The translations under genes and the position numbers were made by a program. Shown piece by piece: positions 1,040 through 37,932 of a stretch of DNA of 37,932 bases (the first letter of the stretch is position 1; every line of letters begins with the position of its first letter). This stretch comes from a bacterium. GTDB lineage: Bacteria; UBA9089; UBA9088; JAGUXG01. The stretch lies in assembly GCA_043798435.1 (NCBI GenBank), contig JAZDOR010000047.1, positions 1 through 37,932 on the forward strand, given 5' to 3'. The notes below the pieces were generated by a model that had not been told where the DNA came from, did no database searches, and was given only the letters and a program-made list of their open reading frames with translations.

Positions 1040-1209
1040 AGAATACAGAATTCAGAATAAATAAATTATTTGACACAGATTTTCACAGATTTTCACAGAT
1101 TTTAGTGGTTAGAATAAAATCAGTGTTTGATCAGTGTAAATCAGTGTCTAAAAAAGGAAATTCCTATACAATCAAGTTCTTTCATTCTGACTCCTGAATT
1201 CTGACTTCT
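1040..1209. repeat. AGAATTC-armed palindrome with a nested CACAGAT-armed palindrome (1070..1151)
   Basis: Left arm AGAATACAGAATTCAGAAT, right arm ATTCTGACTCCTGAATTCTGACTTCT. Inner TTGACACAGATTTTCACAGATTTTCACAGAT ... ATCAGTGTTTGATCAGTGTAAATCAGTGTCTAA. Confidence 0.85.
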
Positions 1210-1975
1210 AACTTTTTATCAGCATTTCAGCTGCTTTTTTGCCAGAAAGGAGCATTCCGCCGAATATAGGCCCCATCCTTGGCCCTCCAAAAACAGCATT
1301 ACATGCCATTCCAGCCACATAAACCCCAGGGTATATCTCCTTTGTATTCTCCACAATGAGACGCTCACCTATCTCTGCCCACATAGGCTTTTCGCCCAAA
1401 ATGTCTCCTGTTTCTGTGAGAAGATTCTTCCCAATCTTTCTGGTGATTATATGAGCTATCTCAGCCGCATGTCCAGTAGCATCTATAATATATTTTGATC
1501 GAATTGTCAATGGGTCAACATGTAATTTAGCAATGTCAACCGCACTCCAGTTAAGAACAAGCCCCGTAACCCTTTCTTCACGAATCATCACATCCTCGCA
1601 AGAGATAAGATTATATATCCTTACCCCGGCCCTGATAGCTGAAAGGCAGAGGGCTGAAACCGTCTCTAAGGAATCTGTGACAAAATAGTTGGGTCGGTAT
1701 TCCTTATATCGTATCCCAAACTCATCTAAGATTGCCCTTGATTCCTCCTGAAAGACGCATTTGTTACACATCATCCCTCCACCCCACATTCCTCCACCAA
1801 TAGAGAGCTTTCTCTCAAAGAGGACCACCTTGAACCCCTTTTTGGCTAAGTAATAGCCGGCAGTAAGCCCAGCAGGACCTCCACCAACAATAGCCACATC
1901 GCTCTCTAAAGAGTCAATCATATCCTTTCCCCATTCCTCTAAAATAGCCCTTGAAATGACAATGTCATCTAACAT
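1208..1975 (-). CDS. thi4: Sulfide-dependent (His-type) adenosine diphosphate thiazole synthase
   Basis: GGGPAG dinucleotide motif, [15 protein letters not shown] (His where suicide Thi4 enzymes have Cys), [15 protein letters not shown]. Confidence 0.92.
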
Positions 1976-2001
1976 TTTATCCTCCTTCTTAAAAGATTTT
2001 T

Positions 2002-2217
2002 GTAACTATTCAGGTAGTAAGAAGACAGAATTCAGAATACAGAATTCAGGAGTCAGAATGAGAACGCTTACATGTAGTGTTCAAAACTTTGGGGTATGGT
2101 GATTCTTCAAAACTATTGATACTACTAAAAAAGGTCAGTAAATTATTAGAATCTTACTCTGATATTATTCTGAATTCTGAATTCTGACTCCTGAATTCTA
2201 ACTATCTAAACAGTTAC
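2002..2217. mobile_element. GTAA-ended MITE-like element carrying an AGAATTC palindrome
   Basis: Ends GTAACTATTCAGGTAG / CTATCTAAACAGTTAC; perfect 8-bp direct repeat AGATTTTT at 1994-2001 and 2218-2225. Confidence 0.88.
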
Positions 2218-2231
2218 AGATTTTTAACATA

Positions 2232-2636
2232 CTAAAAAAATATCTCAATCGCCTGATAGGGACATGCCTTCAGGCAGAGTCCACAGGCTGTGCAGTGCTC
2301 AGAGTCAAATGAGACCTTCATACTCTTTCTGTCAACAACCAATGCAGAAAATGGACAGATGGGAATGCAGGCTGTGCAATGGATGCATCTTTCTTCATTC
2401 CATCTCACATCAGAAGCTAAAGGTTGCACTACTACACCTAAATCTTTGAGGTAGGTCATACCCTTGTTTAGATTCTCATTCTCACCGCTTATCTCTACCA
2501 CCAACCTCCCTTCTTCATTCGGCTCTACCTTTGCACTCAGGATATTCACCATCAGGTCATATTCCTTAATCAAATGATAGGTGATTGGCTTTTCTACTGT
2601 CTCTTTCAGAAAGGTCAGGACCACTCGTTTTTTCAT
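2232..2636 (-). CDS. NIL domain + 2x[4Fe-4S] ferredoxin (MA1822/MJ0099-like)
   Basis: N-terminal NIL (YDLMVNILSAKV) plus two CxxCxxCxxxCP motifs; adjacent to a DUF39 gene. Confidence 0.88.
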   Translation of the reverse strand: MKKRVVLTFLKETVEKPITYHLIKEYDLMVNILSAKVEPNEEGRLVVEISGENENLNKGMTYLKDLGVVVQPLASDVRWNEERCIHCTACIPICPFSALVVDRKSMKVSFDSEHCTACGLCLKACPYQAIEIFF

Positions 2637-2656
2637 TATTTCTTACCTCCTACAGA

Positions 2657-2806
2657 ATAAGCGTTCAGGCAGTGTAACAAAAGGAGATAAGGAGATAAAA
2701 GGGATATGGAGATATTTTTAAGGGAAAAGAAAATAATTCATCTCCCCATCCCCCATATCTTCTTATCCCCCTTCTTACACTTTTTTTGTATAGCCTGAAC
2801 GGTTAC
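2657..2806. mobile_element. GTAAG-type MITE shell with GGAGATA arms and an empty centre
   Basis: (A)TAAGCGTTCAGGC-AGTGTAA...TTACAC...GCCTGAACGGTTAC with GGAGATAAGGAGATA / TATCTTCTTATCCCC arms. No clean TSD. Confidence 0.75.
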
Positions 2807-5950: not shown

Positions 5951-6041
5951 GTAACTACTCAGGTTGTCAAAGTTCAAGATTCATAGTTCATCGTTTAAGT
6001 CGCTTTCTGAAAACCGTGAAAGACTGAACCTGAATAGTTAC
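5951..6041. mobile_element. Short GTAA-ended MITE-like element with GTTCA-type arms
   Basis: GTAACTACTCAGGTT / AACCTGAATAGTTAC. No TSD. The right end contains the pscS stop codon. Confidence 0.75.
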
Positions 6042-7758: not shown

Positions 7759-7943
7759 GTAAGCGTTCAGCCTATTAATCAAAGAGTGTAAGAAGGGGGA
7801 TAAGAAGATAATGGGGAAACGAGAGAGAATCCAGAATACAGAATCCAGAATTCAGAATATTAAATTCTGTATTCTGACTCCTGAATTCTGACTTCTATTA
7901 ACCTTTCCCATATCCCCTTTTTTTACACTACCTGAACGGTTAC
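7759..7943. mobile_element. GTAAG-type MITE shell (GGAGATA arms) with nested AGAATTC palindrome (7826..7896)
   Basis: GTAAGCGTTCAG / CTGAACGGTTAC; flanks TTATCTTC (7751-7758) and TTATCTCC (7944-7951), a 7/8 match. Confidence 0.85.
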
Positions 7944-8076: not shown

Positions 8077-8134
8077 TTTTGGAGTGCATTGACCATGTCA
8101 ATGCACGCATCGTCACTGACGATGCACTCCAAAA
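8077..8134. repeat. REP-like inverted doublet of GGAG-hairpin units
   Basis: TTTTGGAG-TGCATTGAC-CAT-GTCAATGCA followed by the inverted unit GCATCGTCA-C-TGACGATGCA-CTCCAAAA. Confidence 0.65.
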
Positions 8135-10150: not shown

Positions 10151-10172
10151 GCAAAATAAATATTAAGACTAC

Positions 10173-10319
10173 GTAAGCGTTCAGCCGTCAGCCATCAGCA
10201 GTCAGCAAAGACCATAAAATCAAGACAAAAGAGGTTTTCCTAACTTCACGGCTTCCTGCTCTTTGTGCTGTAATACCTTGTAAAAGCTGAAAGCTGTCCG
10301 CTGATAGCTGAACGCTTAC
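10173..10319. mobile_element. GTAAG-type MITE with TCAGC-heptamer arms
   Basis: Perfect 13-bp TIR GTAAGCGTTCAGC / GCTGAACGCTTAC; perfect TSD AAGACTAC (10165-10172, 10320-10327). Confidence 0.92.
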
Positions 10320-11205: not shown

Positions 11206-11280
11206 TGGACTTTAGATGAACTTTAGATTTTCAAGATTTATAAAATATTATCCTGTAAATCTGCGAAAATCTGCGTCCCA
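11206..11280. repeat. Degenerate GACGCAGAT-family palindrome
   Basis: GGACTTTAGATGAACTTTAGATTTTCAAGAT ... ATCCTGTAAATCTGCGAAAATCTGCGTCCC; same family as 32230..32316. Confidence 0.55.
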
Positions 11281-11308: not shown

Positions 11309-12400
11309 ATGGTCAAAAGGATTGGTGTTTCAACAGGTGGAGGGGATTGCCCAGGGCTTAATGCAGTCATTCGAGCAGTGGTAAAGAGTGCCCTGAATCT
11401 TGGTTGGGAGGTTATTGGCATCAGAAGAGGGTTTGAGGGGCTTATAGATATTAAAAAGTCAAAGCTACTCAAATCAAAGGATATTGCTGGAATACTGCAT
11501 ATAGGCGGCACAATCCTTGGCACAACAAACAGGGGCGACCCATTCAAGATGGAGGTTAAGGTTGGAAGAAAGACTGTTGTAACCGATGTTTCCGACAAAG
11601 TAATAGATGGATTCAGGAGATTAAGGCTTGATGCCTTAGTTATGATTGGTGGTGATGGAACCCTTACGATTGGCAAAAAACTTTATGATATGGGGCTACC
11701 CATTGTTGGTGTGCCAAAGACAATAGACAATGACCTTTCAGGAACAGTGATGACCTTTGGTTTTGATACGGCTGTCTCCACGGCTACTGAGGCTTTAGAT
11801 AAACTCCATTCTACAGCAGAAAGCCATCAGAGGGTGATGGTGGTTGAGGTGATGGGCAGGTATGCGGGCTGGATTGCCTTACATTCTGGGATTGCCGGGG
11901 GTGCCGATGTCATTCTTATTCCAGAAATTCCCTTTGATATGGACAGTGTCTGTGAGAAGGTAAGGGATAGATACAGGATACAGAAGAATTTCTGTATCAT
12001 TGTGGCAGCAGAGGGGGCAAAGTTAAAGGGAGGCGGTCTATTCACCAAAGAGTGCAAGGATAAAGGCAGGGTAGAGCCACTCTTGGGTGGAATTGCCGAG
12101 AATGTAGCTAAGGAGGTAGGAAGATTAACAGGAAAAGAGACAAGGTCCCTGGTCTTAGGACACCTTCAGAGGGGAGGACATCCTACAACCTTTGACAGGC
12201 TTCTTGCCACAAGATTTGGCTCTGCGGCTGTAAGGCTGATTCAAGAAGGAAAGTTCGGGAATATGGTTGCCCTTCATCCACCGAATATTACCGCAGTTCC
12301 TTTGAGCGAGGCTATTGGCAAGATGAAGACTGTTCCCCTTGATTCTGATGTAATTCAATCAGCAAAGTCTCTGGGCATATCCTTTGGAGACGGAGGGTAA
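11309..12400 (+). CDS. pfkA: 6-phosphofructokinase (PfkA family)
   Basis: TGGGDCPGLNA, IGGDGT, PKTIDNDL, VEVMGR, LGHLQRGG. Confidence 0.93.
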   Translation: MVKRIGVSTGGGDCPGLNAVIRAVVKSALNLGWEVIGIRRGFEGLIDIKKSKLLKSKDIAGILHIGGTILGTTNRGDPFKMEVKVGRKTVVTDVSDKVIDGFRRLRLDALVMIGGDGTLTIGKKLYDMGLPIVGVPKTIDNDLSGTVMTFGFDTAVSTATEALDKLHSTAESHQRVMVVEVMGRYAGWIALHSGIAGGADVILIPEIPFDMDSVCEKVRDRYRIQKNFCIIVAAEGAKLKGGGLFTKECKDKGRVEPLLGGIAENVAKEVGRLTGKETRSLVLGHLQRGGHPTTFDRLLATRFGSAAVRLIQEGKFGNMVALHPPNITAVPLSEAIGKMKTVPLDSDVIQSAKSLGISFGDGG

Positions 12401-12767
12401 TTACTCAAAATCTTAGGGAGAATATTTAGCCACAGAGCTCACAGAGAGCACAGAGGAATTAGCCACGAATGCACACGAATTAACACTAATAATTCATTCG
12501 TGCCTATTCGTAATATTCGTGTTTATTCGTGGTTTATTCATCTTTCTTTGTGACCTCTAAAGTTCTCTGTGGCGTAACTATTTACCCAAGTGAAGCAGAA
12601 GACAATTGTTCACCTTTAGGGCACCGCTGAGGACGCAGAGAATTTACAAAATTTTTAAGTTTTTATTTCTCTGTGCTCTCTGCGAGCTCTGCGGTTAATC
12701 TCTTCTTCAGATGAGTAAAGTGTTACTCTGTGGCTTTTCCACAATCCTAAATTTTATGAGTAGTTAC
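12397..12767. mobile_element. Composite GTAA-ended MITE: CACAGAG palindrome, nested CACGAAT palindrome and a nested second MITE
   Basis: GTAATTACTCAAAA / TTTTATGAGTAGTTAC; perfect TSD GACGGAGG (12389-12396, 12768-12775). Confidence 0.9.
12574..12726. mobile_element. Nested GTAAC MITE (CGCAGAG arms)
   Basis: GTAACTATTTACCCAAGTGAAG / CTTCAGATGAGTAAAGTGTTAC; perfect TSD TCTGTGGC (12566-12573, 12727-12734); closely similar inverted copy at 24202..24351. Confidence 0.9.
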
Positions 12768-14233: not shown

Positions 14234-14328
14234 AGTCATTAGTCAATAGTCATTAGTAGGAGAAATTTTTTACTGATGACAAGTGACCAGTAACTAATGA
14301 CCATAAATTTTGTGTCTCTGTGGCTAAA
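14234..14328. repeat. AGTCATT-heptamer palindrome plus an orphan CACAGAG right arm
   Basis: AGTCATTAGTCAATAGTCATTAGT ... ACTGATGACAAGTGACCAGTAACTAATGAC, then TGTGTCTCTGTGGCTAAA. Confidence 0.75.
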
Positions 14329-16107: not shown

Positions 16108-16184
16108 TTAGACACTGATTTACACAGATGAACACAGATAATTTTTAAATTTTATCAGTGAAAATCAGTGTTAATCTGTGTCAA
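16108..16184. repeat. CACAGAT-armed palindrome
   Basis: TTAGACACTGATTTACACAGATGAACACAGAT ... ATCAGTGAAAATCAGTGTTAATCTGTGTCAA. Confidence 0.85.
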
Positions 16185-16215
16185 AAAAATTTTATTTATT
16201 TTTTGCCATCTCAAT

Positions 16216-18769: not shown

Positions 18770-18791
18770 ACAATAAATTTACCATTCAAAA

Positions 18792-18922
18792 GACAGAGAA
18801 TACAGAGAAATTCAATGTAAAATTAGCAATGCAAAACTATCAATGCAAATTTTTGAAATGCTAATTGCTAATTTTGCATTTTACATTGAGTTATCTCCTA
18901 ATAACTCTGTGCCTCTGTGGTG
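18792..18922. repeat. CACAGAG palindrome with nested AATGCAA-heptamer palindrome
   Basis: GACAGAGAATACAGAGA [AATTCAATGTAAAATTAGCAATGCAAAA ... TTGCTAATTTTGCATTTTACATTGAGTT] CTCTGTGCCTCTGTGG. Confidence 0.8.
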
Positions 18923-18932
18923 AATATTTGTG

Positions 18933-20150: not shown

Positions 20151-20162
20151 CTGTTAATAGTG

Positions 20163-20255
20163 TATGGTTTATGGTTTATGGTTTATAGTTTATGGTTTAT
20201 GGTTTATGGTTTATAGTTTATAGACTATCAACTATAAACTATCAACTATAGACTA
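20163..20255. repeat. TTTATGG/TTTATAG-heptamer palindrome
   Basis: About 9 units of TTTAT(G/A)G followed by ACTATCAACTATAAACTATCAACTATAGACTAT, which includes the DUF1015 stop codon. Confidence 0.85.
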
Positions 20256-21400
20256 TACATCACCACCCCAGAGAAGGGCTTGGGAAAAAAGTAGGTTGCC
20301 TTTCCTGGCATATAAAGAGAGGCTCTTGCTACATCCATCACACCTTGAAACCCTGGTGGTCTGAGCAAAAACCCACAATAGAATTCGCCGCTTTCCACAC
20401 GAGAGAAGACCTCTCTGGCATCTTTGGTATATGCCACATCCTTCTCTTCTTCCTGACTATCAAAGATTACATTATGAAGTATCGCCACATCAACTTTTTT
20501 CAAAGGCTCAGTAAGATTAATCTCCTCTCCTTGTTTTAGGGTTAATATGTATGCCCCGTCCTTTTTTACCATACCAAAAATGCCTATGCCTTTTCTTTCT
20601 GAAAGAATGTTGAGAAGCTCCTCCTTTTTCACCTTCTCTCTTGAAAAGTCAGCAAGTCTCTCCTCTAATAAAGTATCTTTGAGGAGTCTATGTGCCGAAA
20701 GAATAATAAACCCTCCCATATCCTTTTCTAAAAGCATAGCCATCACGGGCTTTTTCAAGGCAAGGGCTGTCTCGTATCTATGATGTCCATCAGCAATAAA
20801 TAGCTGTTTCTTTGAAAGCTCACGAGAAAGCTTCTCCATATCCTCTTTAATCTGCCATAGCCTGCAAAATAGCCCCTTTTTATATTCAAACTGGATTTTG
20901 GGCGGACCAGATGGAGTAAGCCATCTTCCAATCTTTTTCTCTTCATCGCAGTAGACAAGAAATATGGGGCAGAAGTTTGTCTGGGTTTTCTTCAATAGCT
21001 CCAATTGATCCTTCTTTGGTGCGGCAAGTGTTCTTTCGTGAGGAAGAATCGTTTTTGCATAATATGGCTCAGCCTCAATAGACGCAATAATACCTGACAT
21101 TACCCCTTTTTCCCATTCCTGTTGATAGAGATAGAAAGAGGGGCTTTCCTCCTCTATCAAAACACCCTCTTTCTTCCATTTTGTCTGGAATTCCGCGGCA
21201 CGCGTATATCTATTATTCTCCTCTGTATCCTCTGGATAACCCTTTCCAAGTATGAGCCTGATGACATTACATTGGTGAGCCTGATAGAAAGCCTCTTGCT
21301 CTACACAAGAGATTATATCATAAGGAGGAGCCACAACAGAAGAGATATCAACCTTCTCCTGATTATAAAAAACGCCTCTAAACGGATGTATCTTTGCCAT
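20246..21400 (-). CDS. DUF1015-family protein
   Basis: IHPFRG, VAPPYDII, ILPHERTL, FIADGHHRYETAL, KATYFFPKPFSG. Confidence 0.9.
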   Translation of the reverse strand: MAKIHPFRGVFYNQEKVDISSVVAPPYDIISCVEQEAFYQAHQCNVIRLILGKGYPEDTEENNRYTRAAEFQTKWKKEGVLIEEESPSFYLYQQEWEKGVMSGIIASIEAEPYYAKTILPHERTLAAPKKDQLELLKKTQTNFCPIFLVYCDEEKKIGRWLTPSGPPKIQFEYKKGLFCRLWQIKEDMEKLSRELSKKQLFIADGHHRYETALALKKPVMAMLLEKDMGGFIILSAHRLLKDTLLEERLADFSREKVKKEELLNILSERKGIGIFGMVKKDGAYILTLKQGEEINLTEPLKKVDVAILHNVIFDSQEEEKDVAYTKDAREVFSRVESGEFYCGFLLRPPGFQGVMDVARASLYMPGKATYFFPKPFSGVVMYSL

Positions 21401-21403: not shown

Positions 21404-21480
21404 AAATCGCGAATCTCGAGTCGTTGATCGCGAATTTATTTTTTTTCAATTTGCGATTCGCAATCCGCGATTCCAAATTT
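21404..21480. repeat. CGCGAAT-heptamer palindrome
   Basis: AAATCGCGAATCTCGAGTCGTTGATCGCGAA ... TTTGCGATTCGCAATCCGCGATTC. Confidence 0.75.
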
Positions 21481-22515: not shown

Positions 22516-22669
22516 TATACCCAAACAAATCAGGCTTACCAAAAATTGTGTTCGTTTATGGTTCTGAGGTTCAAGGTTAGAGAATAAGAGGATTAACCGT
22601 GAACCTTGAACCCTTTAACCCCTGAACCTGAGTAGTTACTTTTTTGTAAACCAATTTCTTTTCGGTATA
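22516..22669. mobile_element. TA-duplicating MITE inserted in the terminal repeat of a GTAAC MITE
   Basis: TATACCCAAACAAATCAGG ... CCAATTTCTTTTCGGTATA; removing it with one TA restores CTTCAGATGGGTAAATAGTTAC; inverted copy at 27350..27510. Confidence 0.85.
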
Positions 22670-24201: not shown

Positions 24202-24351
24202 GTAACACTTTACTCATCTGAAGAAGAAATTAACCGCAGAGCTCGCAGAGGGCACAGAGAAATAAAAACTTAAAATTTTGTAAATTCTCTGCGTTCTCAG
24301 CGTGCTCTGCGGTAAACAATTATCTTCTGCTTCACTTGGGTAAATGGTTAC
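24202..24351. mobile_element. GTAAC MITE (inverted copy of 12574..12726), 33 bp after an orphan GTAACTATTCAG end at 24169
   Basis: Perfect TSD AGATTTTA (24194-24201, 24352-24359). Confidence 0.9.
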
Positions 24352-25919: not shown

Positions 25920-26081
25920 TGTTTATATCTCCTTAATTATTATTTTCTTGTCGTTCGATCTTTCTTGCTTCATAATTCCTCCTATCTTAATATAGAATCT
26001 TTTGAAAAAAATTGATTGAGTTCTTCTATAAATACCTTTTTTGGAGCTGAACTATAAAGTTAAGAATATCATCCTTTAATT

Positions 26082-26175
26082 TTTCGTGTTTTCGCTCTTT
26101 CGAGGTTTCGTGATTATATTTTATTTCTCCAAAGTCTCTAAAAACTAATTTTACTTCAGGTAGCTAAAGTGTTAC
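26082..26175. mobile_element. Truncated GTAAC MITE (right part only)
   Basis: TTTCGTGTTTTCGCTCTTTCGAGGTTTCGTGAT arm, then CTTCAGGTAGCTAAAGTGTTAC; the dxr C-terminus and stop are read from this end. Confidence 0.6.
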
Positions 26176-27310: not shown

Positions 27311-27349
27311 TTAAATTATAACTTTGGGAGACTTAGGAGGAATTCAATG

Positions 27350-27510
27350 TATACCGAAAAGAAATTGGTTTACAAAAAAGTAACTACTCAGGTTCAGGGG
27401 TTAAAGGGTTCAAGGTTCACGGTTAATCCTCTTATTCTCTAACCTTGAACCGTGAACCTCAGAACCATAAACGAACATAATTTTTTGCAAACCTGATTTG
27501 TTTGGGTATA
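27350..27510. mobile_element. TA-duplicating MITE inserted in an AATGCAA palindrome (27341..~27577)
   Basis: Removing it with one TA restores AATTCAATGTAAAATTAGCAATGCAAAA, identical to the uninterrupted copy at ~18809. Confidence 0.88.
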
Positions 27511-27609
27511 AAATTAGCAATGCAAAATTATCATCTTAAAATGATAATTGCTAATTTTGCATTTTGCAATGAGTTATTCTCTGTATCCCTAAAGGTAAAT
27601 AGCTATTTA

Positions 27610-28512: not shown

Positions 28513-28515
28513 CGT

Positions 28516-28682
28516 ATGAGTTTTGAGTTATGAGTTTTGAGTTATGAGTTTTGAGTTATGAGTTTTGAGTTATGAGTGATGAGTTATGAGTTTTGAGTTT
28601 TGAGTTTTGAGTTTTGAGTTTTGAGTTTTGAGTTTTGAGTTATTTTATTAAACTCTAAACTCTGAACTCTACACTCTGAACT
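28516..28682. repeat. GAGTTTT/GAGTTAT heptamer palindrome with an expanded left arm
   Basis: About 18 heptamer units, then AAACTCTAAACTCTGAACTCTACACTCTGAACT. Confidence 0.9.
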
Positions 28683-29004: not shown

Positions 29005-29017
29005 ATTTCTAAAAGAA

Positions 29018-29092
29018 GTGATCGGTTATCGGTAATCAGTAATCGGTAAGGGAAACAATTACCGGTAACCGATTACCCGATAACCTGATTAC
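29018..29092. repeat. GTAATCG-heptamer palindrome
   Basis: GTGATCGGTTATCGGTAATCAGTAATCGGTAA ... TTACCGGTAACCGATTACCCGATAACCTGATTAC. Confidence 0.88.
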
Positions 29093-29099
29093 CATTTTC

Positions 29100-29270
29100 C
29101 TATTTTTTCTTCGTCTTCTCTATCATGGAAGGAGAGAGGAGAATGCTTATCGGCACAAGCACAAGCCCAGCAACAATGAAGAGCGGACCAAGAAATAGCC
29201 TCCTCAGATAGAGAAGGAGAAACCCTAAAGCATATACCCCAACTGCAATGGCGAATATCTTCTTGTTCAT
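29100..29270 (-). CDS. 56-aa two-helix membrane protein; not in the ORF track
   Basis: MNKKIFAIAVGVYALGFLLLYLRRLFLGPLFIVAGLVLVPISILLSPSMIEKTKKK; TATAAT 7 nt upstream of the ATG. Confidence 0.65.
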   Translation of the reverse strand: MNKKIFAIAVGVYALGFLLLYLRRLFLGPLFIVAGLVLVPISILLSPSMIEKTKKK

Positions 29271-29318
29271 TGGCTATATTATATCAACCACACCTTAAAA
29301 ATTGCAATCAGATTTTAA

Positions 29319-29481
29319 ATAAGCGTTCAGGTAGTGTAAGAAAAGGAGAGGACAGAGATTATGGAGATAAGGGGATAAAATTTTGAATTAAAAATTAAGA
29401 ATTAAAAATGAATTATCTCCATATCCCCATTATCTCCTTATCCCCTTTCTTACACCTCTGATACATAGCCTGAACTGTTAC
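29319..29481. mobile_element. GTAAG-type MITE shell (GGAGATA arms)
   Basis: (A)TAAGCGTTCAGGTAGTGTAAG ... CTTACAC ... GCCTGAACTGTTAC; same family as 2657 and 7759; no TSD. Confidence 0.78.
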
Positions 29482-32163: not shown

Positions 32164-32171
32164 TTTTTTTG

Positions 32172-32381
32172 GTAAGTGTTCAAGTAGTATAAAATAAGGA
32201 GAAATGGGGAAAGGGGAGAATTGAAGAAATAGGACGCAGATTAACGCTGATTTACAAGATAGGAATTAAATAAGAATCTGCGCTAATCCTAAAAAATCCT
32301 GAAAATCTGCGTTCTAATTCTTCCCCATCTTCTCCTTTTCTCCTTTCTTACGCATCTTAAAATATAGCCAGGAACGGTTAC
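32172..32381. mobile_element. Degenerate GTAAG-type shell with nested GACGCAGAT palindrome (32230..32316)
   Basis: GTAAGTGTTCAAGTAG ... GGAACGGTTAC; GGAGAAATGGGG / CCCCATCTTCTCC arms; no TSD. Confidence 0.7.
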
Positions 32382-32384
32382 AAT

Positions 32385-32786: not shown

Positions 32787-32792
32787 TTTTTT

Positions 32793-32963
32793 TTAGACAC
32801 AGATTACACTGATGAAGAACCAATAAAGAATAAATATTTTGACACAGATTACACTGATGGACACTGATAAAGAGATATTATAAATATAAAGAAAGATATT
32901 TAATCAGTGAGTATCTGTGTTAATCAGTGTCTAAAATATTTCTTCATTTATAATCAGTGTCTG
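32793..32963. repeat. CACAGAT palindrome nested in a second CACAGAT palindrome
   Basis: Outer TTAGACACAGATTACACTGATGAAG ... CTTCATTTATAATCAGTGTCTGA; inner TTGACACAGATTACACTGATGGACACTGAT ... ATCAGTGAGTATCTGTGTTAATCAGTGTCTAA. Confidence 0.85.
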
Positions 32964-32971
32964 ATATTTTA

Positions 32972-35095
32972 TCATATCTCTTTCTCTTTGTCAATCTCCT
33001 TGTTTTTGGAAATAGTAAAGGTAAATGTGCTTCCCTCGCCTGATTTTGAGGAGACCCAGATTCTACCTCCGAGGGCTTTGACTAATTCAGAGACGATAGC
33101 AAGCCCTAAACCTGTTCCACTATATTTGCGGGTGCTTGTGTAGTCTGCCTGATAGAACCTTTCAAAGATTTTCTCCTGCTCCTCCCTGGCTATGCCAATC
33201 CCTGTATCAGAGACGGAGAGCTCTATCTCTTTCTCTGTTTCCTTTGCCCCAATGGTTACATCTCCTCCAGAAGGCGTGAACTTGACGGCATTATCAAGGA
33301 GCCTGTAAAAGATATCGCTTATCTTTTGGGAATCAGAGATTACAGTCGATAATCTTTGGGGAAGGTCAAGCTCTATGTTCAGCCCTTTATGATACACCAG
33401 CAAGCCAAAGCTCCTTGTCACTTCATCAATCACCTTCTTTAGATAGACCTTCTCTGCTTTAACCTCATAAACCTTGCCACTCTCAATAGCAGCCAGATTG
33501 AGAATATCTGTAATGATGGAGTTTAGCTTAAACCCCTTCTCCTCTATCTTCTTTATACCCTCTTTCTGACTCTTAGTCAGCCTTCCGAGAGTCTCTCTCT
33601 TCAAAAGCCCGAGCTGAGCAATGATGAAGGTAAGGGGAGTCTTCAGCTCATGGGAGACGATATTCAGGAAGTCAGACTTGGCTACATTTGCCTTTTCTAA
33701 TTCTTTTGCCCTGGCCTTTAGAGAAGTATGCAGTCTTGAATTCTCCAAAGAGATCGCCAGCTCTTTGGCTATGGTATCTAAGAAACTTATCTCATCATAG
33801 GTATAGCCACCGTCTCCCTTCTTCTCTCCGAGGTTCAATAACCCCATCAGCTCATCTCTATGAATTAAAGGTGTGACAAGCATGGCATTTGTCTTCTTAA
33901 AATCGCTTTGTATCTCTGTTTTTGAGCCAGAGAAGTCAGGGTCTTTATCTAACTCCTCATAGAATATCACTTGACGTTTTTTAGAAAGCCACTGAATAAG
34001 TGGGGCATCTGCTGATATAAACACATTTTCCTCGCCCTGGCCTACCAAGTATTTGAGGATATAACTATTGTTCACAGGAAGCATACAGGAGATAAACTCT
34101 GGATGCAGGGTCTCTTTAATCTGGTTCATGAGATATGGAATAAGCATGTCCGGGTCATAATTTGTGGCAATTTCATGGGTAATCTTCTTAGAGAGAGAGA
34201 ATAGCTCCTGAGTCTGGCGATAGAAGAGCCTGTCAACGATGAGCTGAACCCTCTCCCTGAGAAGATTGAAGATGAAGACGAAGATGACAATAGTTATAAC
34301 CCTGGCCAGGGTTGCTTGAAGATGCAAGGTATTCTCAAAGAGAAAGATGGAGGAAAACCATATAGCTGTAACTAAGGCAGTGAGCATAGTGTAGGCAAGA
34401 CCTGGCCTGATTAACACATTGATGTCCATCAATCGATAGCGGACAATGGCAAGGGCTGTCATACACACAAAGGAAAGTTCAGCAATATTACCAATGGGAA
34501 ATACCATTTGTTTCCCGGAAGCTAAGAGGAAGTTTGATATACCGCCAGCTATAGATATAGATAGACCCATTAAGAGGTATTTCAGTTGGTTCTTCTCTAA
34601 GTAGGATGTCGCTATTCTAAACCTTTTAATAAGCAGAAAGGCACCCATTAGGGTCAAGCCATAAAAGAATAAGAGGAAGAGCAAGGGCATAGGTGGATTA
34701 CAAAAGACTGGAAAGTATCCCTTCTTTAGAGGTATAACATCCTTTATAAGCAACCCGGATAAAGACAAGAGGCCAAAGATGAAACTTATAATGTAGCCTA
34801 TAGGAATCAGCCTTTTAATTCTTGTTTTGGATTCATTTAAGAAGCTCACCACAAAATGGAAGAAGGTGGAAGGGATGAAGATAACACCTATGAGGAGTAC
34901 CCTTGCCCAGACTAAGGCAAAATGAGGCTCTTTGGCAAAACAGAGCCCAAAGTCCATAAGGTTCCAGATAGAGGTACAGATTACCCAATAACAGAAGGTT
35001 CTGTTTGCCTCTTTACTACTATCCCTGCTCAGGACAAAGATGCCCAGGAATAGATTGAGCAGGGCAATCACAAGAAGGGTCAATCCATAGAACAT
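32972..35095 (-). CDS. Multi-TM (7TM-type) sensor histidine kinase with GAF domain
   Basis: Hydrophobic N-terminus ending AIVRYRLMDI, GAF, VSHELKTPL, LLDNAVKFT, GTGLGL. Confidence 0.9.
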   Translation of the reverse strand: MFYGLTLLVIALLNLFLGIFVLSRDSSKEANRTFCYWVICTSIWNLMDFGLCFAKEPHFALVWARVLLIGVIFIPSTFFHFVVSFLNESKTRIKRLIPIGYIISFIFGLLSLSGLLIKDVIPLKKGYFPVFCNPPMPLLFLLFFYGLTLMGAFLLIKRFRIATSYLEKNQLKYLLMGLSISIAGGISNFLLASGKQMVFPIGNIAELSFVCMTALAIVRYRLMDINVLIRPGLAYTMLTALVTAIWFSSIFLFENTLHLQATLARVITIVIFVFIFNLLRERVQLIVDRLFYRQTQELFSLSKKITHEIATNYDPDMLIPYLMNQIKETLHPEFISCMLPVNNSYILKYLVGQGEENVFISADAPLIQWLSKKRQVIFYEELDKDPDFSGSKTEIQSDFKKTNAMLVTPLIHRDELMGLLNLGEKKGDGGYTYDEISFLDTIAKELAISLENSRLHTSLKARAKELEKANVAKSDFLNIVSHELKTPLTFIIAQLGLLKRETLGRLTKSQKEGIKKIEEKGFKLNSIITDILNLAAIESGKVYEVKAEKVYLKKVIDEVTRSFGLLVYHKGLNIELDLPQRLSTVISDSQKISDIFYRLLDNAVKFTPSGGDVTIGAKETEKEIELSVSDTGIGIAREEQEKIFERFYQADYTSTRKYSGTGLGLAIVSELVKALGGRIWVSSKSGEGSTFTFTISKNKEIDKEKEI

Positions 35096-35517
35096 CTAAT
35101 CTCCTCCACCCTGTTTTTTATCCTATTTAATGTATCGGGGCTGAGTCTCATTAAAGACCTGATAGCAATCAGTTCTATTATTCTTCTAATCAAAGGAATC
35201 TTCAATTCAACCTGGTGAATCAAAGAAAGACTTGTCTTGCCAGATTGGTCGCTGAATTTATACTCTGCTTTCAGTCCCTTTACCAGCCCTGAAAGTTGCT
35301 CGGTGACCATTCTTTTGTTAATTCTATCAATGAGGATGGAGGTCTTCAATTTAACCTTCATTTTCCATTCAATCAATAGCCTATCTTCCTCCTGGCTGAT
35401 TATCGTCATATTCCTGTGGGAAGGAAGAAACTCTGGCCACCTGGCTACATCTGTTACTATCTTGAAGACCTCATCAACAGGTTTATCAATTAAGATTCTA
35501 TTTTCCAGATGAATCAT
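35080..35517 (-). CDS. SRPBCC / polyketide cyclase-like ligand-binding protein
   Basis: IDKPVDEVFKIVTDVARWPEFLP. Confidence 0.8.
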   Translation of the reverse strand: MIHLENRILIDKPVDEVFKIVTDVARWPEFLPSHRNMTIISQEEDRLLIEWKMKVKLKTSILIDRINKRMVTEQLSGLVKGLKAEYKFSDQSGKTSLSLIHQVELKIPLIRRIIELIAIRSLMRLSPDTLNRIKNRVEEIRCSMD

Positions 35518-36846
35518 CTAAAACCTATAGCTTCCAGTGACACCAAGGGCATCTCCATTCTTCTCATACTCCACGCCATTCAAGGTCTCCTTGCCAGATA
35601 AATTCACATAAGCAAAATCAAGGACAAGATTTCCTTTTCTATAACCTGTTCCAAGGGTGAGGAATCTGCAATCTACATCAATCAGCTTAGTGATATCTAC
35701 GCCATCTGCAGGTACAGGGGATGGTGAGAAATAGAACCCGGCTCTCAATGACCAAACCTCATATGGTCTGTATTCAAAACCCATCCTGAATCTGTCTGTA
35801 TTGCTCCAGTTAAGACTTTTGTCTCTATCCTGAAGGAACTTAGTCGTGCCACTCCCGGTATCCCGCTCAAAGTCTATATCCTCCTCCATACTGCTCCAGT
35901 ATGTCCTTGCCAAATCACAGACTATGGTTATCTTTGGGGTCAGTCTGTAAGCTGTTCCAAGATCTAAGGTAGCTGGGTAAGAAAAATTTTGGGTGTAGTT
36001 GCTCTTTTCAGTTCCTGTCGCTGCTCCTAACATCTGACCTTGAAGACTCCCCTCTCCCTCTCCTTCTAATGAAAGGAGACTGCCGCTCCTGGCCACACCT
36101 CCGATAGAGAGCTTATCTGATGGTTTAAGCAAAAAGCCTACTACCCCTTCAAGACCTGTTCCATCACCAGAGACCTTATTAACAAAGTCATAGTTATAGA
36201 AAGACGCAGTAGCAGTAGAATAGCTCTTCTTTGCCTCTACCTCAAATTTGCTATAGAGGAGATTGAGACCTGCACCAATAGAGAGGTCATCTGTTACCTC
36301 CTTGGCCAGAGATATATTCCCCACAGATACAGATAACTGGGTATGGTATGAAGCATTTATATCAGCACCCATAGCATCCTTCATCCCATCCTTCCAGTCT
36401 ATGGCATTCCCATTCGGAGTGTAGAGACCTCCAGCCAAAGTCCATCCGCTCCGTTTCTGCCACCCACCAAGAGAAGGAAGGATAGCAGATGTCTCTATCT
36501 CCTTTTTGGCAAACCTTGTTGGCTCACCAGGATAGCCAGGAAGAAAACCGCCCATATCAGGTCCATAGAGACGAAAAAAGAGTGTTTTATAGTCATCACC
36601 ATTAGCCACAGAATTCCCATCCTCACCCTTTAGCGATACATACTCTAAATACCCACCTGCCCCTTTCTCAGAAACCTGGGAAAGCCCTGCGGGATTCCAG
36701 TATATAGCTGTCCAGTCATCAGCTAAGCCAACGAATGCCCCGCCCATTCCAATAGCCCTTGCTCCCAATCCACCAAACTCATAACCTCCACCAAGCACAA
36801 GACCTGGCAGACCCAACACCATTAACAAAACTAAACCTTTCTTCAT
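35518..36846 (-). CDS. OmpP1/FadL-family outer-membrane transporter
   Basis: Signal peptide MKKGLVLL, GARAIGMGGAFVGLADDWTAIYWNPAGL, C-terminal SYRF; GGAGGT RBS before 36846. Confidence 0.9.
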   Translation of the reverse strand: MKKGLVLLMVLGLPGLVLGGGYEFGGLGARAIGMGGAFVGLADDWTAIYWNPAGLSQVSEKGAGGYLEYVSLKGEDGNSVANGDDYKTLFFRLYGPDMGGFLPGYPGEPTRFAKKEIETSAILPSLGGWQKRSGWTLAGGLYTPNGNAIDWKDGMKDAMGADINASYHTQLSVSVGNISLAKEVTDDLSIGAGLNLLYSKFEVEAKKSYSTATASFYNYDFVNKVSGDGTGLEGVVGFLLKPSDKLSIGGVARSGSLLSLEGEGEGSLQGQMLGAATGTEKSNYTQNFSYPATLDLGTAYRLTPKITIVCDLARTYWSSMEEDIDFERDTGSGTTKFLQDRDKSLNWSNTDRFRMGFEYRPYEVWSLRAGFYFSPSPVPADGVDITKLIDVDCRFLTLGTGYRKGNLVLDFAYVNLSGKETLNGVEYEKNGDALGVTGSYRF

Positions 36847-36913
36847 TTTCAAATACCTCCTTTTTATAATCAACATATCCTTTTACCCAACCCCTCAATC
36901 AAGACCTTCTCTT

Positions 36914-37105
36914 GTATTTACTCAAAATTTTGGGGAATTAACCAAAAAATTAGACACTGATCTACTATAGATGAACACTGAAGAGATATTTAGACACTGA
37001 TTTGCACAGATGAACACTGATTAAAATAAAGGAAGAAATCTGTGTGAATCAGTGTAAATCTGTGTCAAAAAAATTTTAGTCCTCCTCAAAATTATGAGCA
37101 ATTAC
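36914..37105. mobile_element. GTAA-family MITE carrying CACAGAT palindrome(s)
   Basis: GTATTTACTCAAAATTTTG / CAAAATTATGAGCAATTAC; perfect TSD CTTCTCTT (36906-36913, 37106-37113). Confidence 0.88.
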
Positions 37106-37122
37106 CTTCTCTTCATCTTCTT

Positions 37123-37683
37123 TCACCTCCTTTTTATAGGCAACAGCCCAAACACCTCTTTTCTGTAATCAATATATTCCTGGCCCAATTTTTCAATCAA
37201 TGCCTTCTCTTCGAGGTGTATCCGAATCAAAATAGAGGCAAGATATATTGTCCAGACAAAGATAAGGGCATAATAAGAGTTTGGAATAAGGCAGAGCCCA
37301 TTTGCCTCAAGGAAGAGACAGAGCAGGTTAGGATGACGGACATATCCGTAAGGTCCCTCTTTTATCAGCCTGTGATCCTCCCTTATGCGAATATCTACGC
37401 TCCAGTATCTTCCAAGTGTCCTAATCACCCATTCCCGACCAATTATTCCAGCAAGATAGAGGATTAGACCAGAAAGACTGACGAATAGATTCATTCTTCT
37501 TTGAACAAGAAAAAACTCCACCAGGCTAAAGATTACCATCGCCACATAAAGCCAGAACTGGAGAGAAAAGATTGGCTTGAAATAGACAGTGCCTCCTTCT
37601 CTATTCCGCTTAGTCCTATTCTGAAAGATGCGCAGCCCTAAGGATACGACCAAAAAGGCTATATAAAATAGTGTAAAATTCAT
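37123..37683 (-). CDS. Isoprenylcysteine carboxylmethyltransferase (ICMT) family membrane protein
   Basis: TLGRYWS, HRLIKEGPYGYVRHPN, RIHLEEKAL; AGGAGG RBS before 37683. Confidence 0.88.
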   Translation of the reverse strand: MNFTLFYIAFLVVSLGLRIFQNRTKRNREGGTVYFKPIFSLQFWLYVAMVIFSLVEFFLVQRRMNLFVSLSGLILYLAGIIGREWVIRTLGRYWSVDIRIREDHRLIKEGPYGYVRHPNLLCLFLEANGLCLIPNSYYALIFVWTIYLASILIRIHLEEKALIEKLGQEYIDYRKEVFGLLPIKRR

Positions 37684-37747
37684 CTCCTCCTTCTGAAACA
37701 CTTTACGGTATTGTCAAACATTAACCACAGAGTCCACAGAGAAAAAC

Positions 37748-37932
37748 GTAACTACTCATAAAATTTAGAATTGTGGAAAAACCACAGAAAAATAAAATAA
37801 ATTTTGCCACAGATGACACAGATTAACACTTATTCTTTTGACACAGATTAACACAGATTACACTGATAAGAATTAAAAAATTATCTGTGAGTATCTGTGT
37901 AAATCAGTGTCTAAATATCTCTTCTGTGTTCA
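37748..37932. mobile_element. Left part of a GTAA MITE (12397 family, inverted) with nested CACAGAT palindromes; runs off the window
   Basis: GTAACTACTCATAAAATTTAGAATTGTGGAAAAACCACAGA closely matches the reverse complement of 12727..12767. Confidence 0.8.

Follow-up and report, generated by a model that had tools for sequence, protein, structure and literature searches.

The 23S rRNA gene of Coxiella contains an intervening sequence with an ORF for the four-helix-bundle protein S23p, which is apparently not made, and a 28-bp terminal stem that is cut by RNase III (PMC4990558). Mobile elements of the IS66 family have inverted repeats that begin with GTAAGCG and make 8-bp repeats (PMC11946415). 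In the window, i.e. the whole stretch of 37,932 nucleotides analysed here, many intergenic gaps hold hairpin modules built from short tandem units, a spacer and the complementary units. An earlier note, made from the letters alone, had listed such modules, and all its units were present where it had placed them. In Coxiella, AGAAGA and tandem GACAGAT heptamers precede the ORF (PMC4990558), an arrangement resembling the AGAAGA-CAGAATT found here. We regard the cassettes described below and the ORF-bearing 23S rRNA intervening sequence as elements of one kind.

Hairpin modules in the window and the genome

In the window, Tandem Repeats Finder (TRF) detected 54 arrays of period 6-12 after merging, compared to a mean of 6.8 and a maximum of 14 in 30 first-order shuffles, and 38 of the 54 are intergenic despite a window that is 83% coding in the ORF list of this analysis. 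When RNA folding was compared with shuffles, the MFE z-score was below -3 in 17 and below -2 in 21 of 25 window gaps, whereas none of 25 coding control segments reached z < -3. Genome-wide, TRF gave 3616 rows (1171 of period 7, 103 of period 6, 78 of period 11 and two of period 5), which merge into 2585 arrays covering 77 kb of 2.23 Mb. The commonest arm families are AGAATTC, CACAGAT and GAGTTTT, and single families are spread over 30-90 contigs; the assembly is 84% complete and its 233 contigs break at the hairpin repeats, therefore all copy numbers are only rough. The AGAATTC right arm that the note had given as identical at 1209 and 7896 is an exact 26-mer (1184-1209 and 7871-7896) that occurs 13 times in the genome. 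Its view that the unit families are unrelated does not apply to those of period 8-10 (CACAGAT, CRCAGAG, CACGAAT and GACGCAGAT), which have a common C-R-C-R-R-A-K core.

Among about 25 window modules, 13 are bare. Bare modules, remnants and a few other parts are listed first, with the strand given where assigned:

1040..1209, bare AGAATTC-armed module, arms 1040-1059 and 1184-1209, with the next hairpin at its centre
1070..1157, CACAGAT hairpin, period 10, arms 1074-1103 and 1117-1147, nested in 1040..1209
11206..11275, decayed GACGCAGAT-type hairpin
14234..14301, bare AGTCATT hairpin, period 7
16108..16185, bare CACAGAT hairpin within a longer inverted repeat (16032-16229)
18770..18932, CACAGAG-armed shell with an AATGCAA hairpin (18805-18895) inside
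20153..20262, bare TTTATGG hairpin, period 7, 8.4 copies
21404..21478, bare CGCGAAT hairpin, period 7
26040..26125, forward strand, GxxExxY cassette remnant, last ~11 codons and right arm TTTTTCGTGTTTTCGCTCTTTCGAGGTTTCGTG (compared with C214 and C186)
27341..27577, AATGCAA hairpin in two pieces, 27341-27351 and 27511-27577, split by the TA-flanked MITE 27352..27508 (compared with 18805-18895)
28515..28682, bare GAGTTTT/GAGTTAT hairpin, 17.9 + 4.9 units
29013..29111, bare GTAATCG hairpin, period 7
32793..32960, bare CACAGAT/CACTGAT hairpins
36950..37075, bare CACAGAT/CACTGAT hairpins
37730..37932, CACAGAG units, GTAACTACTCATAA end (37748) and CACAGAT hairpin (37806-37915), reaching the contig end

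Strong folding is seen at 20153..20262 (MFE z -11) and 32793..32960 (z -7.1). The hairpin at 16108..16185 has 87-94% copies on contigs C123 and C112, the left piece at 27341 is separated from its rest by a 159-nt insertion, and metagenome contigs show loose ends at 26048 and 26072 in the GxxExxY remnant.

About half of the window modules (12 of about 25) lie in MITE shells. The shell-type parts are:

2002..2217, forward strand, IS66-type MITE GTAACTATTCAGG...CAGTTAC, AGAATTC arms 2020-2059 and 2167-2199
2657..2806, GTAAGCG-type shell with the first base mutated to A, GTGTAAGAA and GGAGATA arms, period 8
5951..6041, short GTAACTACTCAGG...CCTGAATAGTTAC shell with AGTTCAn units
7759..7943, GTAAGCG-type MITE, GGAGATA arms, AGAATTC hairpin 7826-7896 at its centre
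10173..10319, GTAAGCGTTCAGCC MITE, TCAGCnn arms, period 7
12397..12767, composite IS66-type MITE GTAATTACTCAAAA...TTATGAGTAGTTAC, duplication GACGGAGG on each side
12574..12726, IS66-type MITE GTAACTATTTACCC...GTAAAGTGTTAC with CGCAGAG hairpin, inserted in 12397..12767, own duplication TCTGTGGC
22518..22667, TA-flanked MITE, TIR TACCCAAACAAATCAGG..., GGTTCAn hairpin 22551-22629, GTAACTACTCAGG end 22627-22639
24202..24351, IS66-type MITE GTAACACTTTACTC...GGGTAAATGGTTAC, CGCAGAG hairpin 24230-24316, duplication AGATTTTA on each side
27352..27508, TA-flanked MITE, TIR TACCGAAAAGAAATTGGTTTACAAAAAA, GTAACTACTCAGG at 27380 and GGTTCAn hairpin
29320..29481, GTAAGCG-type shell with GGAGATA arms
32171..32381, GTAAG-type shell, GGAGAAA arms, GACGCAGAT hairpin 32223-32323 at its centre

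The earlier statement that the modules lack terminal inverted repeats and target duplications of their own is right for the arms themselves but not for the shells, six of which (2002-2217, 7759-7943, 10173-10319, 12397-12767, 12574-12726 and 24202-24351) start with GTAA, end with TTAC and have flanks identical at 7-8 of 8 positions. For example, AGATTTTT flanks the first of them at 1994-2001 and 2218-2225, AAGACTAC the third at 10165-10172 and 10320-10327, and the flanks of 7759..7943 (TTATCTTC / TTATCTCC) match at 7/8; at the flanks of 2657..2806, a target duplication was not seen. The composite element contains CACAGAG arms (12426-12459, 12665-12698), a CACGAAT hairpin (12464-12539) and the inserted MITE, which has a 96% copy at C127:6900-7052. 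Copies of 7759..7943 (89-93%) occur on C165 and C133, and 83-89% copies of 10173..10319 were found in other families of the phylum, at least seven in G024 and at least one each in G011 and G015.

Presence and absence among congeners

At each of the ten gaps that could be compared, at least one congener lacks the window module; seven of these sites are empty and three hold a different element. The modules are mobile. The MITE 10173..10319 is precisely absent from G001, where the sites of 2002..2217 and 2657..2806 are empty as well and only 23 nt remain at that of 32171..32381. Bare copies are likewise polymorphic, and they lack a target duplication. The module 1040..1209 is missing at the orthologous site of G001 with its gap of 18 nt, the AATGCAA gap at 27341..27577 is empty in G002 (-4 nt), and different elements occupy the sites of 20153..20262 in G002 and of 21404..21478 in G001. 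Two modules separate a start codon from the stop codon next to it. The one at 18770..18932 is inserted exactly there, in a gap that measures -2 nt in G001 and -4 nt in G002; at 28515..28682 the gap is 7 nt and 0 nt, respectively.

Cargo-bearing cassettes

The note had pointed to an association of similar arms with TIGR02436 and TIGR04256 genes, and in this genome the association is real. Profile searches gave five TIGR02436 and seven TIGR04256 matches in the own genome, and wherever both flanks of a copy are assembled, inverted tandem arms of window families stand on either side of it. Such a full cassette of about 430-500 bp consists of one gene of ~120 aa between inverted arrays of a 7-10-base unit. 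The cargo is either a four-helix-bundle protein (PF05635/TIGR02436, Avd-like, '23S rRNA IVS protein') or a GxxExxY protein of PD-(D/E)XK fold (PF13366/TIGR04256), in which E32, Y35, E42, Y60, D71, E81, K83 and Q95 are kept in 29 of 29 proteins and make up a full PD-(D/E)XK signature. Four-helix-bundle genes are bracketed by AGAATTC on C122, GAGTTAT on C168 (9228-9548, the family of 28515..28682), CGCGAAT on C42 (3515-3832, that of 21404..21478) and, in G011 (L167), by the GTAATCG family of 29013..29111. CACAGAT arms, as in 1070..1157, enclose a GxxExxY gene at C72:5306-5638, and further cassettes have AATGCAA arms on C159, GACGCAGAT arms on C129 and GGAGATA arms on C100. Altogether, a cargo-bearing copy was found for 11 of the 14 listed unit families in the own genome and its relatives; for GGTTCAn, AGTCATT and TTTATGG none was found in the 25 phylum genomes searched.

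Decayed copies occur as well. The MITE 2002..2217 is a copy of the C122 type of cassette with an internal deletion, which retains the arms, the start region (~2057) and ~80 nt of the 3' end of the gene (~2085-2166), and GxxExxY remnants occur at C186:1433-1528 and at 26040-26125 of the window. Given this deleted cassette and the pervasive polymorphism, the descriptions of the modules as cargo-less derivatives and as mobile both hold.

Conservation of gene and arms

Orthologues of the C122 protein with 65-80% identity were found at 80 loci in more than 10 phyla. Their flanks contain inverted repeats scoring above 20 shuffles in 70 of 80 cases, and CAG at spacing 7 also recurs in the left flank of 70 of the 80 (consensus CAGRAKN). 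Metagenome loci of the C214-type GxxExxY protein have inverted arms in 56 of the 78 usable cases, and the unit CACGAAAN recurs every 8 nt at 49 of 52 callable loci. Such conservation of the unit sequence with each cargo lineage across phyla points to a sequence constraint, contrary to the former proposal that structure and periodicity are recognised rather than sequence. Unit length tracks the cargo, being 7 nt with four-helix-bundle and 8-10 nt with GxxExxY genes: in the two phylum sets, spacing 7 was seen at 17 of 27 callable four-helix-bundle loci versus 0 of 23 GxxExxY loci (Fisher p = 1.5e-6, the loci being non-independent), the GxxExxY loci showing spacings of 8 (12) or 9 (11). Ten of the 27 four-helix-bundle cassettes thus deviate from spacing 7, which among the orthologues was found in 46 of 47. 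Moreover, the two arms co-vary within loci (own-partner score 32.6 on average versus 25.3 across loci, Wilcoxon p = 6e-6).

Possible origin and fate of the modules

The analysis shows the anatomy, the cargo link, the polymorphism, the duplicated targets and the joint conservation of gene and arms across phyla. Regarding their origin, we consider it probable (about 0.65) that the gap hairpins are copies of palindromic one-gene cassettes which are decayed or no longer code for a protein, and that they belong to a superfamily of such very small mobile elements. The cargo gene would be lost by internal deletion, leaving unit array, spacer and complementary array in the gap, while each cargo lineage would retain its own unit. 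By analogy with the 23S rRNA intervening sequence, the arms may pair in the transcript and the stem may be cut by RNase III, so that a perfect hairpin between genes could be tolerated, with its flanks held together and the hairpin itself removable from the RNA. An RNase III gene is present in the genome, and metatranscriptome contigs break at the hairpin repeats like the DNA contigs do. Sense-strand mismatches are more often G.U (240) than A.C (189, p = 0.016), in a weak test that is significant alone in one of four sets. Against the reading as a whole stand the three unit families mentioned above for which no cargo copy was found, the deviating spacings, and the own 23S rRNA gene, which is 330 nt longer than the model but in which a long inverted repeat was not found. 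In this lineage the cassettes have been amplified to hundreds of copies, and about half of those in the window lie inside ordinary MITEs or make up their core. These MITEs, IS66-type (GTAAGCG/GTAAC ends, 8-bp duplication) or TA-flanked, can be shown to provide a route of transposition. Genome-wide, 29 of 114 GTAA...TTAC pairs have flanks identical at 7/8 or more, whereas none of the 114 reaches even 6/8 in an offset control; the phylum contains an intact IS66-family element with matching ends (L183, 1737 bp, 541-aa frame) and the own genome a transposase fragment with a matching end on C211, and TA flanks are found at 20 of 22 TACCSAAA-type pairs of the second family.

It is rather unlikely that ordinary MITEs explain everything. 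In this reading, every module would belong to the interior of an IS66-derived or TA-type MITE and be moved by the respective transposase, the ends of the bare copies would have decayed, and the small genes would be passengers as in mobile insertion cassettes. The shells around 12 of about 25 modules agree with it, as does the MITE inside a MITE at 12574-12726 with its own duplication, and some bare ends resemble decayed IS66 tips, e.g. ACAATAAATTTACC at 18770. The 29 GTAA...TTAC pairs with duplicated flanks fit it too. However, arms occur in about 70 of 80 cross-phylum cassettes, but IS66-type TTCAG ends plus a 7-8/8 duplication in only four of the 80 and at one phylum locus, all five with four-helix-bundle genes, so that the MITE layer may have been added locally. 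At the 99 CACAGAT hairpins of the own genome, palindromic A/T flanks are conserved and duplications of 4, 6 or 8 nt are not above control. The link between period and cargo would be unexpected for passengers. The same arms are shared by two MITE families unrelated to each other and by 23S rRNA intervening sequences, hence the hairpin unit is older than any one shell. With 13 modules bare, they are not all fixed parts of IS-derived MITEs, but with about half of them inside ordinary MITEs the system is not entirely 'distinct', as the note had called it. Very improbable are RNA structures in the service of the host (terminators, REP/BIME-like stabilisers, control sites for RNase III) with an origin in situ by slippage and inverted duplication. 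The intergenic position, the strong folding and the location within operons, where expression might be adjusted by RNA structure, would suit them, but the modules are missing at orthologous congener sites, their families are spread over 30-90 contigs and accompany the gene in other phyla, terminator-like sites are not enriched (21 versus 17.1 +/- 4.9), the stems lack a following T-run, and an Rfam family match to the modules was not found. It is hardly credible that the modules are doublets of REPIN type mobilised by a RAYT (Y1/HUH) transposase: two Y1_Tnp genes are present and REPINs are hairpins without target duplications, but the RAYT-like gene C122:46947-47288 is flanked by a different motif (GGGGACGCAACC) with only four genome copies, and the families have no common conserved 5' tetranucleotide.

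Clearly less probable than the cassette reading is that the cargo proteins themselves recognise and mobilise the elements, in which case each would bind its cognate arm units as DNA hairpin, cruciform or RNA. The GxxExxY nuclease would then cut at the arms, and cargo-less hairpins would be non-autonomous copies served in trans. Beyond mere pairing, CAGRAKN and CACGAAAN are kept with their cargo lineages across hosts, and a host factor could not co-vary in such a way; the separation of periods by cargo family, the nuclease signature and the polymorphism of bare copies without target duplication fit as well, and for each of the three commonest families the genome contains an intact cargo-bearing copy. 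Against this, gene and arms travel together, hence shared descent and concerted repeat evolution could also keep the units alike. The abundant GGTTCAn, CRCAGAG and TCAGCnn families have no intact cargo copy in the own assembly, S23p is apparently not made in Coxiella, and a lone protein of ~120 aa would be an unusual transposase. If this reading were true, the cassettes would represent a new class of autonomous mini-element.

Hairpin modules in the window and in the genome

The earlier note described modules built from a tandemly repeated short unit, an A/T-rich spacer and the repeated reverse complement of the unit, and when the gaps between long ORFs were read, this architecture was present at every place for which it had been reported. 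The window, which is an entire 37,932-bp contig of a 2.23-Mb, 233-contig and 84%-complete assembly, yielded 74 TRF rows and, in an inverted-repeat scan, 50 inverted-repeat pairs lying <=400 nt apart. After merging, 54 arrays with a period of 6-12 were counted, as compared to a mean of 6.8 and a maximum of 14 in 30 first-order shuffles. In a window that is 83% coding, 38 of these arrays fall between genes, and so do all window copies of the modules. The hairpins were judged by fold z-scores, which fell below -3 in 17 of the 25 gaps but in none of 25 coding controls, and below -2 in 21 gaps, while strict 6-mer pairing of the TRF arrays undercounts them (4 in the window). An identical 26-mer shared by two of the modules was confirmed as an exact match between 1184-1209 and 7871-7896. 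The Rfam search of the window at gathering score returned no match.

Genome-wide, period 7 is dominant among the 3616 TRF rows (1171, compared to 103 for period 6 and 2 for period 5), and the arrays total 77 kb. The unit families are spread over many contigs, for example AGAATTC over 90, CACAGAT over 85 and CRCAGAG over 63. Left arms most often have four units, with no clear fit to the idea of a pentamer.

Other repeats were observed as well. The palindrome at 8077-8134 (TTTTGGAGTGCA...TGCACTCCAAAA) is without tandem units and has a 99% copy at G000:C54:15067-15203 in the same genome; its motif GCACTCCAAA also occurs beside cassettes on contig C100 and in locus L146. A perfect 21-nt tandem repeat at 25345-25389 (2.1 copies) has the palindromic core GTAAACTGTTTA, and a similar GTAAACTGTTTAC pair is located at C122:24364-24512.

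Cargo genes between the arms

Profile searches of the genome gave five matches for TIGR02436 (four-helix-bundle), all of them over the 24-bit cut-off, and seven for TIGR04256 (GxxExxY), six of them over the 35-bit cut-off. In Pfam, the TIGR02436 proteins correspond to PF05635 (23S rRNA IVS protein, weakly bAvd-like) with 126.7 and 65.6 bits, and the TIGR04256 proteins to PF13366 (PDDEXK_3) with 142 bits. The GxxExxY proteins display the complete PD-(D/E)XK signature, and the GxxExxY and D...ExK residues are invariant in 29/29. Every cargo copy of the genome with both flanks assembled is bracketed by inverted tandem arms of window families, which makes up what we call a cassette, i.e. one gene for a protein of about 120 amino acids between such arms.

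Cargo-bearing copies in the genome, by contig, with the repeat units of their arms
C122: four-helix-bundle gene, AGAATTC arms
C168: four-helix-bundle gene, GAGTTAT arms
C42: four-helix-bundle gene, CGCGAAT arms
C159: four-helix-bundle gene, AATGCAA arms
C68 (contig edge): four-helix-bundle gene, AGTCTAT unit
C214: GxxExxY gene, CACGAAA arms within a CACAGAG shell
C72: GxxExxY gene, CACAGAT arms
C129: GxxExxY gene, GACGCAGAT arms
C100: GxxExxY gene, GGAGATA arms

An S23p/four-helix-bundle ORF between terminal inverted repeats is found on C122, C168, C42 and C159, but not in GxxExxY or cargo-less copies. Cargo-bearing copies in relatives add the families CRCAGAG, CACGAAT, TCAGCnn and GTAATCG. 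The link of arms to these two kinds of genes, which the earlier note had suggested, is borne out: among 25 genomes of the phylum, 11 of the 14 unit families have a cargo-bearing copy, and only GGTTCAn, AGTCATT and TTTATGG have none.

Partly deleted cassettes were found as well. The stretch 2002-2217 aligns to the C122 cassette with both arms, the start region and approximately 80 nt of the 3' end of the gene, the middle being deleted, and remnants of GxxExxY genes occur at window 26040-26125 and at C186:1433-1528. From the cargo copies with window-family arms, this internal deletion and these remnants, it follows that the window modules are cassettes that lack their cargo or have decayed. Partial cargo matches are also numerous in the large genomes of the phylum. 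In three sequencing runs (X3, X5 and X8), contigs of other populations join the 5' end of a GxxExxY gene to window 26048-26072; hence, the remnant cassette there is polymorphic in the extent of its deletion.

A scan of 80-220-aa ORFs between inverted arms revealed no third cargo family: its seven loci comprised three known cargo genes and four ordinary genes between neighbouring hairpins, and several known cassettes were missed, i.e. the scan is insensitive. Furthermore, the 84%-complete genome gave no match to the reverse transcriptase family PF00078.

Cassettes in other phyla and the period of the arms

Relatives of the C122 protein with 65-80% identity were fetched with 80 loci, their hosts including Nostocales, Peptococcaceae, Nitrospirota, Verrucomicrobiota, Acidobacteriota, Desulfobacterota, Bacteroidota, Ignavibacteriota, Scalindua, Elusimicrobia and others. 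The flanks form inverted repeats above 20 shuffles in 70/80 loci, with a score of at least 40 in 41/80, and the left flank displays 7-spaced CAG in 70/80. The 305 units of these left arms have A or G at position 4 in 288 cases, A at position 5 in 301 and G or T at position 6 in 291. The second cargo gives a similar picture, since 56 of 78 usable metagenome loci of the C214 GxxExxY type have arms, and CACGAAA-type units are spaced by 8 nt in 49/52 callable ones. Moreover, the pairing score of a left arm is higher with the right arm of its own locus (32.6) than with right arms of other loci (25.3; p = 6e-6). Across phyla, the cassette is inherited as a unit.

Of the 46 plasmid records that contain the four-helix-bundle gene, most are cyanobacterial and 17 are conjugative; a search of 50,697 phage records gave no match to it. 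On plasmid pNPUN02 of Nostoc punctiforme PCC 73102, the gene NPUN_RS35280 is situated between AGGAGTC arms and between two adjacent genes, and this cassette is placed exactly from the stop codon of one to the start codon of the next.

The most unexpected result of our analysis is a rule for the period. In the four-helix-bundle cassettes of the phylum, the motif spacing is 7 in 17/27 callable loci (the rest 6, 8, 9, 11 or 13), whereas it is 7 in none of 23 callable GxxExxY cassettes (8 in 12, 9 in 11). The association between period and cargo has a Fisher p = 1.5e-6 with the loci being related to each other, and p = 3.7e-4 in a stricter autocorrelation test. It also runs through the 11 window families with cargo, six of which have period 7 and the four-helix-bundle gene and five period 8-10 and the GxxExxY gene. 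This rule argues for a functional coupling between the arms and their cargo.

MITE shells and bare copies

Many modules are enclosed in an outer MITE, here called a shell. The genome holds 114 terminal inverted-repeat pairs starting with GTAAGCG/GTAA at >=12/14 complementarity; the flanking bases are identical at >=7/8 in 29 of them (21 perfect), while in an offset control 0/114 reach 6/8. Six GTAA-type shells with an 8-bp duplication occur in the window, one nested within another, and the congener G001 has an empty site for the shell 10173-10319. An intact IS66-family element was found in another genome of the phylum (locus L183, G015:C86 485-2221; PF03050 with 141 bits, 541-aa frame) with the same kind of ends as the shells, namely GTAACTACTCAGG / CCTGAGTAGTTAC. 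No complete IS66 element with GTAAGCG/GTAA ends is assembled in the genome itself, where an IS66 transposase fragment followed by ...GAGTAAATAGTTAC, a matching end, lies at the contig edge of G000:C211.

According to PMC11946415, an inverted repeat beginning with GTAAGCG and 8-bp direct repeats are hallmarks of IS66. The shells are 90-370 bp long, run from GTAAGCG/GTAAC to the complement, carry no transposase gene and are flanked by 8-bp duplications, and in this they match IS66-family MITEs and mobile insertion cassettes. They differ in that their interior is a tandem-unit hairpin that is also found in non-IS66 contexts, and in that half of the modules and most cassettes of other phyla are without such ends. 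IS66-type TTCAG tips with 7-8/8 duplications were found at five four-helix-bundle cassettes (L089, L091, L069, L158 and L055), hosted by Dolichospermum, Nostoc, a deltaproteobacterium, G018 (a genome of the phylum) and a verrucomicrobium.

A second MITE family has a 28-nt TIR, TACCSAAA...GGTTTRCAAAAAA, a length of about 156 bp and TA on both sides in 20/22 pairs of the genome; it includes window 27352-27508 and 22518-22667. It carries a GGTTCAn tandem-unit hairpin and one IS66-type tip in its interior, and one copy splits the arm of an AATGCAA hairpin at 27352. This family may be of the TA-duplicating IS630/Tc1-mariner type, whose MITEs it resembles in the TIR, the length and the TA flanks, but from which it differs by the hairpin core and the IS66-type tip.

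Next to the composite MITE 12397-12767, a 101-bp tandem duplication (12768-12958; 1.9 copies, 98% matches) covers the RBS and 5' end of a NikR-like gene and starts exactly at the right target duplication GACGGAGG.

The earlier note had named as a counter-case that all modules might be internal parts of IS-derived MITEs; about 13 of the 25 window modules are bare, i.e. without MITE ends, and so are nearly all cassettes of other phyla. No target duplication above control was found at bare cassettes, nor at 99 CACAGAT hairpins, whose conserved palindromic flanks consist of a T-run on the 5' side and an A-run on the 3' side.

Polymorphism between relatives

Presence/absence differences between close relatives were found throughout. 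The two congeners are syntenic, with about 78-91% nucleotide identity over aligned blocks, and in all ten comparable gaps the window module is missing from at least one of them. Seven of these sites are empty, the genes often being 0-12 nt apart or overlapping, and three hold a different element. The modules 18770-18932 and 28515-28682 exactly fill the space from a start codon to the stop codon next to it.

Other differences concern genes. Window 4033-5902 holds one gene of 421 aa and one of 203 aa, in place of which the syntenic stretch of G001 has approximately 60 nt with the IS66-type end GGCTGAACGATTAC. The gene of a retropepsin-like aspartyl protease (15563-16003) and a HepT/nucleotidyltransferase pair (17114-17804) have copies with 81-86% identity in other families of the phylum, compared to about 70-77% for core genes nearby, and they are missing or different at the orthologous place in the second congener, G002. 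Both look like small mobile islands.

Relation to the 23S rRNA IVS and a probable mechanism

The ORF-bearing IVS in the 23S rRNA of Coxiella and Leptospira is the closest likeness in cargo, with a four-helix-bundle ORF between terminal inverted repeats. The Coxiella IVS described in PMC4990558 has an S23p four-helix-bundle ORF that is directly preceded by AGAAGA and tandem GACAGAT heptamers, and RNase III cleaves its 28-bp terminal stem at the first of these repeats. The AGAATTC family reads AGAAGA-CAGAATT...-ATG and is close to this arrangement. Moreover, both are horizontally spread and regarded as selfish. The elements of this genome differ in several respects: they occupy hundreds of intergenic sites, some between coupled genes, and not rRNA; they have a second cargo, GxxExxY, with an arm period of 8-10 nt; and most copies are without a gene, many nested in MITEs. 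The position within helix 9, 25 or 45 of 23S rRNA, by which an IVS is recognised, is not that of the window copies. No long inverted repeat was found in the 23S gene of the genome (L182, G000:C210:585-3839), which has 3255 nt compared to a 2925-position model; an AATGCAA-type module lies just downstream of it (L182 3994-4075).

By this analogy, the window elements would most probably be IVS-type cassettes outside rRNA. The arms may pair in the transcript, a perfect hairpin would hold the host flanks together, and RNase III, whose gene rnc is encoded at C155, could remove the hairpin from the transcript. In the AGAATTC family, the unit CAGGAGT supplies AGGAG and the start codon is often in the last unit (CAGAATG 22 times). 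The stem would also mask translation of the cargo, because AGGAG and often the start codon fall in arm units. The asymmetry of G.U versus A.C mismatches is weak. Contigs of one metatranscriptome and three DNA runs stop at the repeats, with joints that have short sides.

Over modules of window 18000-37932, contig depth adds up to 10-80x that of flanking genes in four runs of metagenomes and metatranscriptomes, for example 953 versus about 12-20 in run X4. This depth shows the repeat families to be very abundant in the sampled communities.

Alternative explanations and other known systems

One may regard the modules as nothing else than MITEs, as the target duplications at the shells would suggest, but the bare copies, the cross-phylum loci and the rRNA contexts contradict this. 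Likewise, hairpins between genes might serve the host as terminators or stabilisers; this reading is contradicted by the polymorphism, by missing T-runs and by the lack of enrichment, since the window has 21 terminator-like sites as against 17.1 +/- 4.9 in shuffles. Of the 21, no more than two, 24248-24234 and 29073-29061, fall within modules in our reading of the table. A further candidate is REP/REPIN, doublets that are moved by RAYT transposases. Like the modules, these are short, abundant, intergenic and hairpin-forming, and like the bare copies they are free of target duplications. The modules differ by having many unit families rather than a single REP, by arms that are internally periodic, by the lack of a cognate RAYT and by full-length forms that bear non-transposase genes; the motif flanking the RAYT gene, GGGGACGCAACC, has only 4 copies in the genome.

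A more far-reaching explanation, which goes beyond decayed cassettes, we consider rather unlikely. The tandem 7-mer and 8-10-mer repeats, which have been noted for long in many bacterial phyla without an explanation, might be the ends of unrecognised autonomous mini-elements. In these, one protein of about 120 amino acids would read its own periodic arms, be it the four-helix-bundle protein as an Avd-like ring or the GxxExxY protein as a PD-(D/E)XK nuclease, with rRNA IVS, cargo-less hairpins and the hairpin cores of several MITE families as products. The unit conservation and the period rule favour such a reading of the arms by the cargo proteins.

Heptamer tandem repeats have been known for long in bacteria, including the cyanobacterial STRR. 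Intergenic inverted pairs of GGGAATC in Xanthomonas and GGGGATT in Nostoc (PMC4692102) and TAACTGA repeats in Beggiatoaceae (PMC4679880) belong here, and they resemble the modules in being intergenic and often convergent pairs able to form stem-loops. The phyla with heptamer repeats are phyla where cassette orthologues occur. Such repeats are described as generally not associated with mobile elements in the main text of PMC4692102, which links them neither to S23p/four-helix-bundle nor to GxxExxY genes ('S23' and 'four-helix' are absent); the main text of PMC4679880 also makes no link to cargo genes ('four helix', 'intervening sequence' and 'GxxExxY' are absent). In the literature searched, again as far as main texts go, only the Coxiella heptamer remark touches on a link between cargo and arms, and the heptamer surveys make none. 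IVS-type selfish cassettes and MITEs form the known part, and no earlier cargo-arm link was found in this literature.

Implications

The elements break metagenome assemblies, as contigs of congeners and of sequencing runs end at the repeats. They also insert inside operons and therefore bear on annotation and on the reading of polycistronic expression. The Nostoc punctiforme PCC 73102 cassette with NPUN_RS35280 offers a cultured and tractable carrier. Several predictions follow, namely that arm period and unit track the cargo lineage, that RNase III cuts the stems, and that cargo-less copies depend on a cargo copy. If true, one testable system would join the rRNA IVS and the S23p ORFs, the over-representation of heptamers, and the roles of TIGR02436 and GxxExxY proteins.
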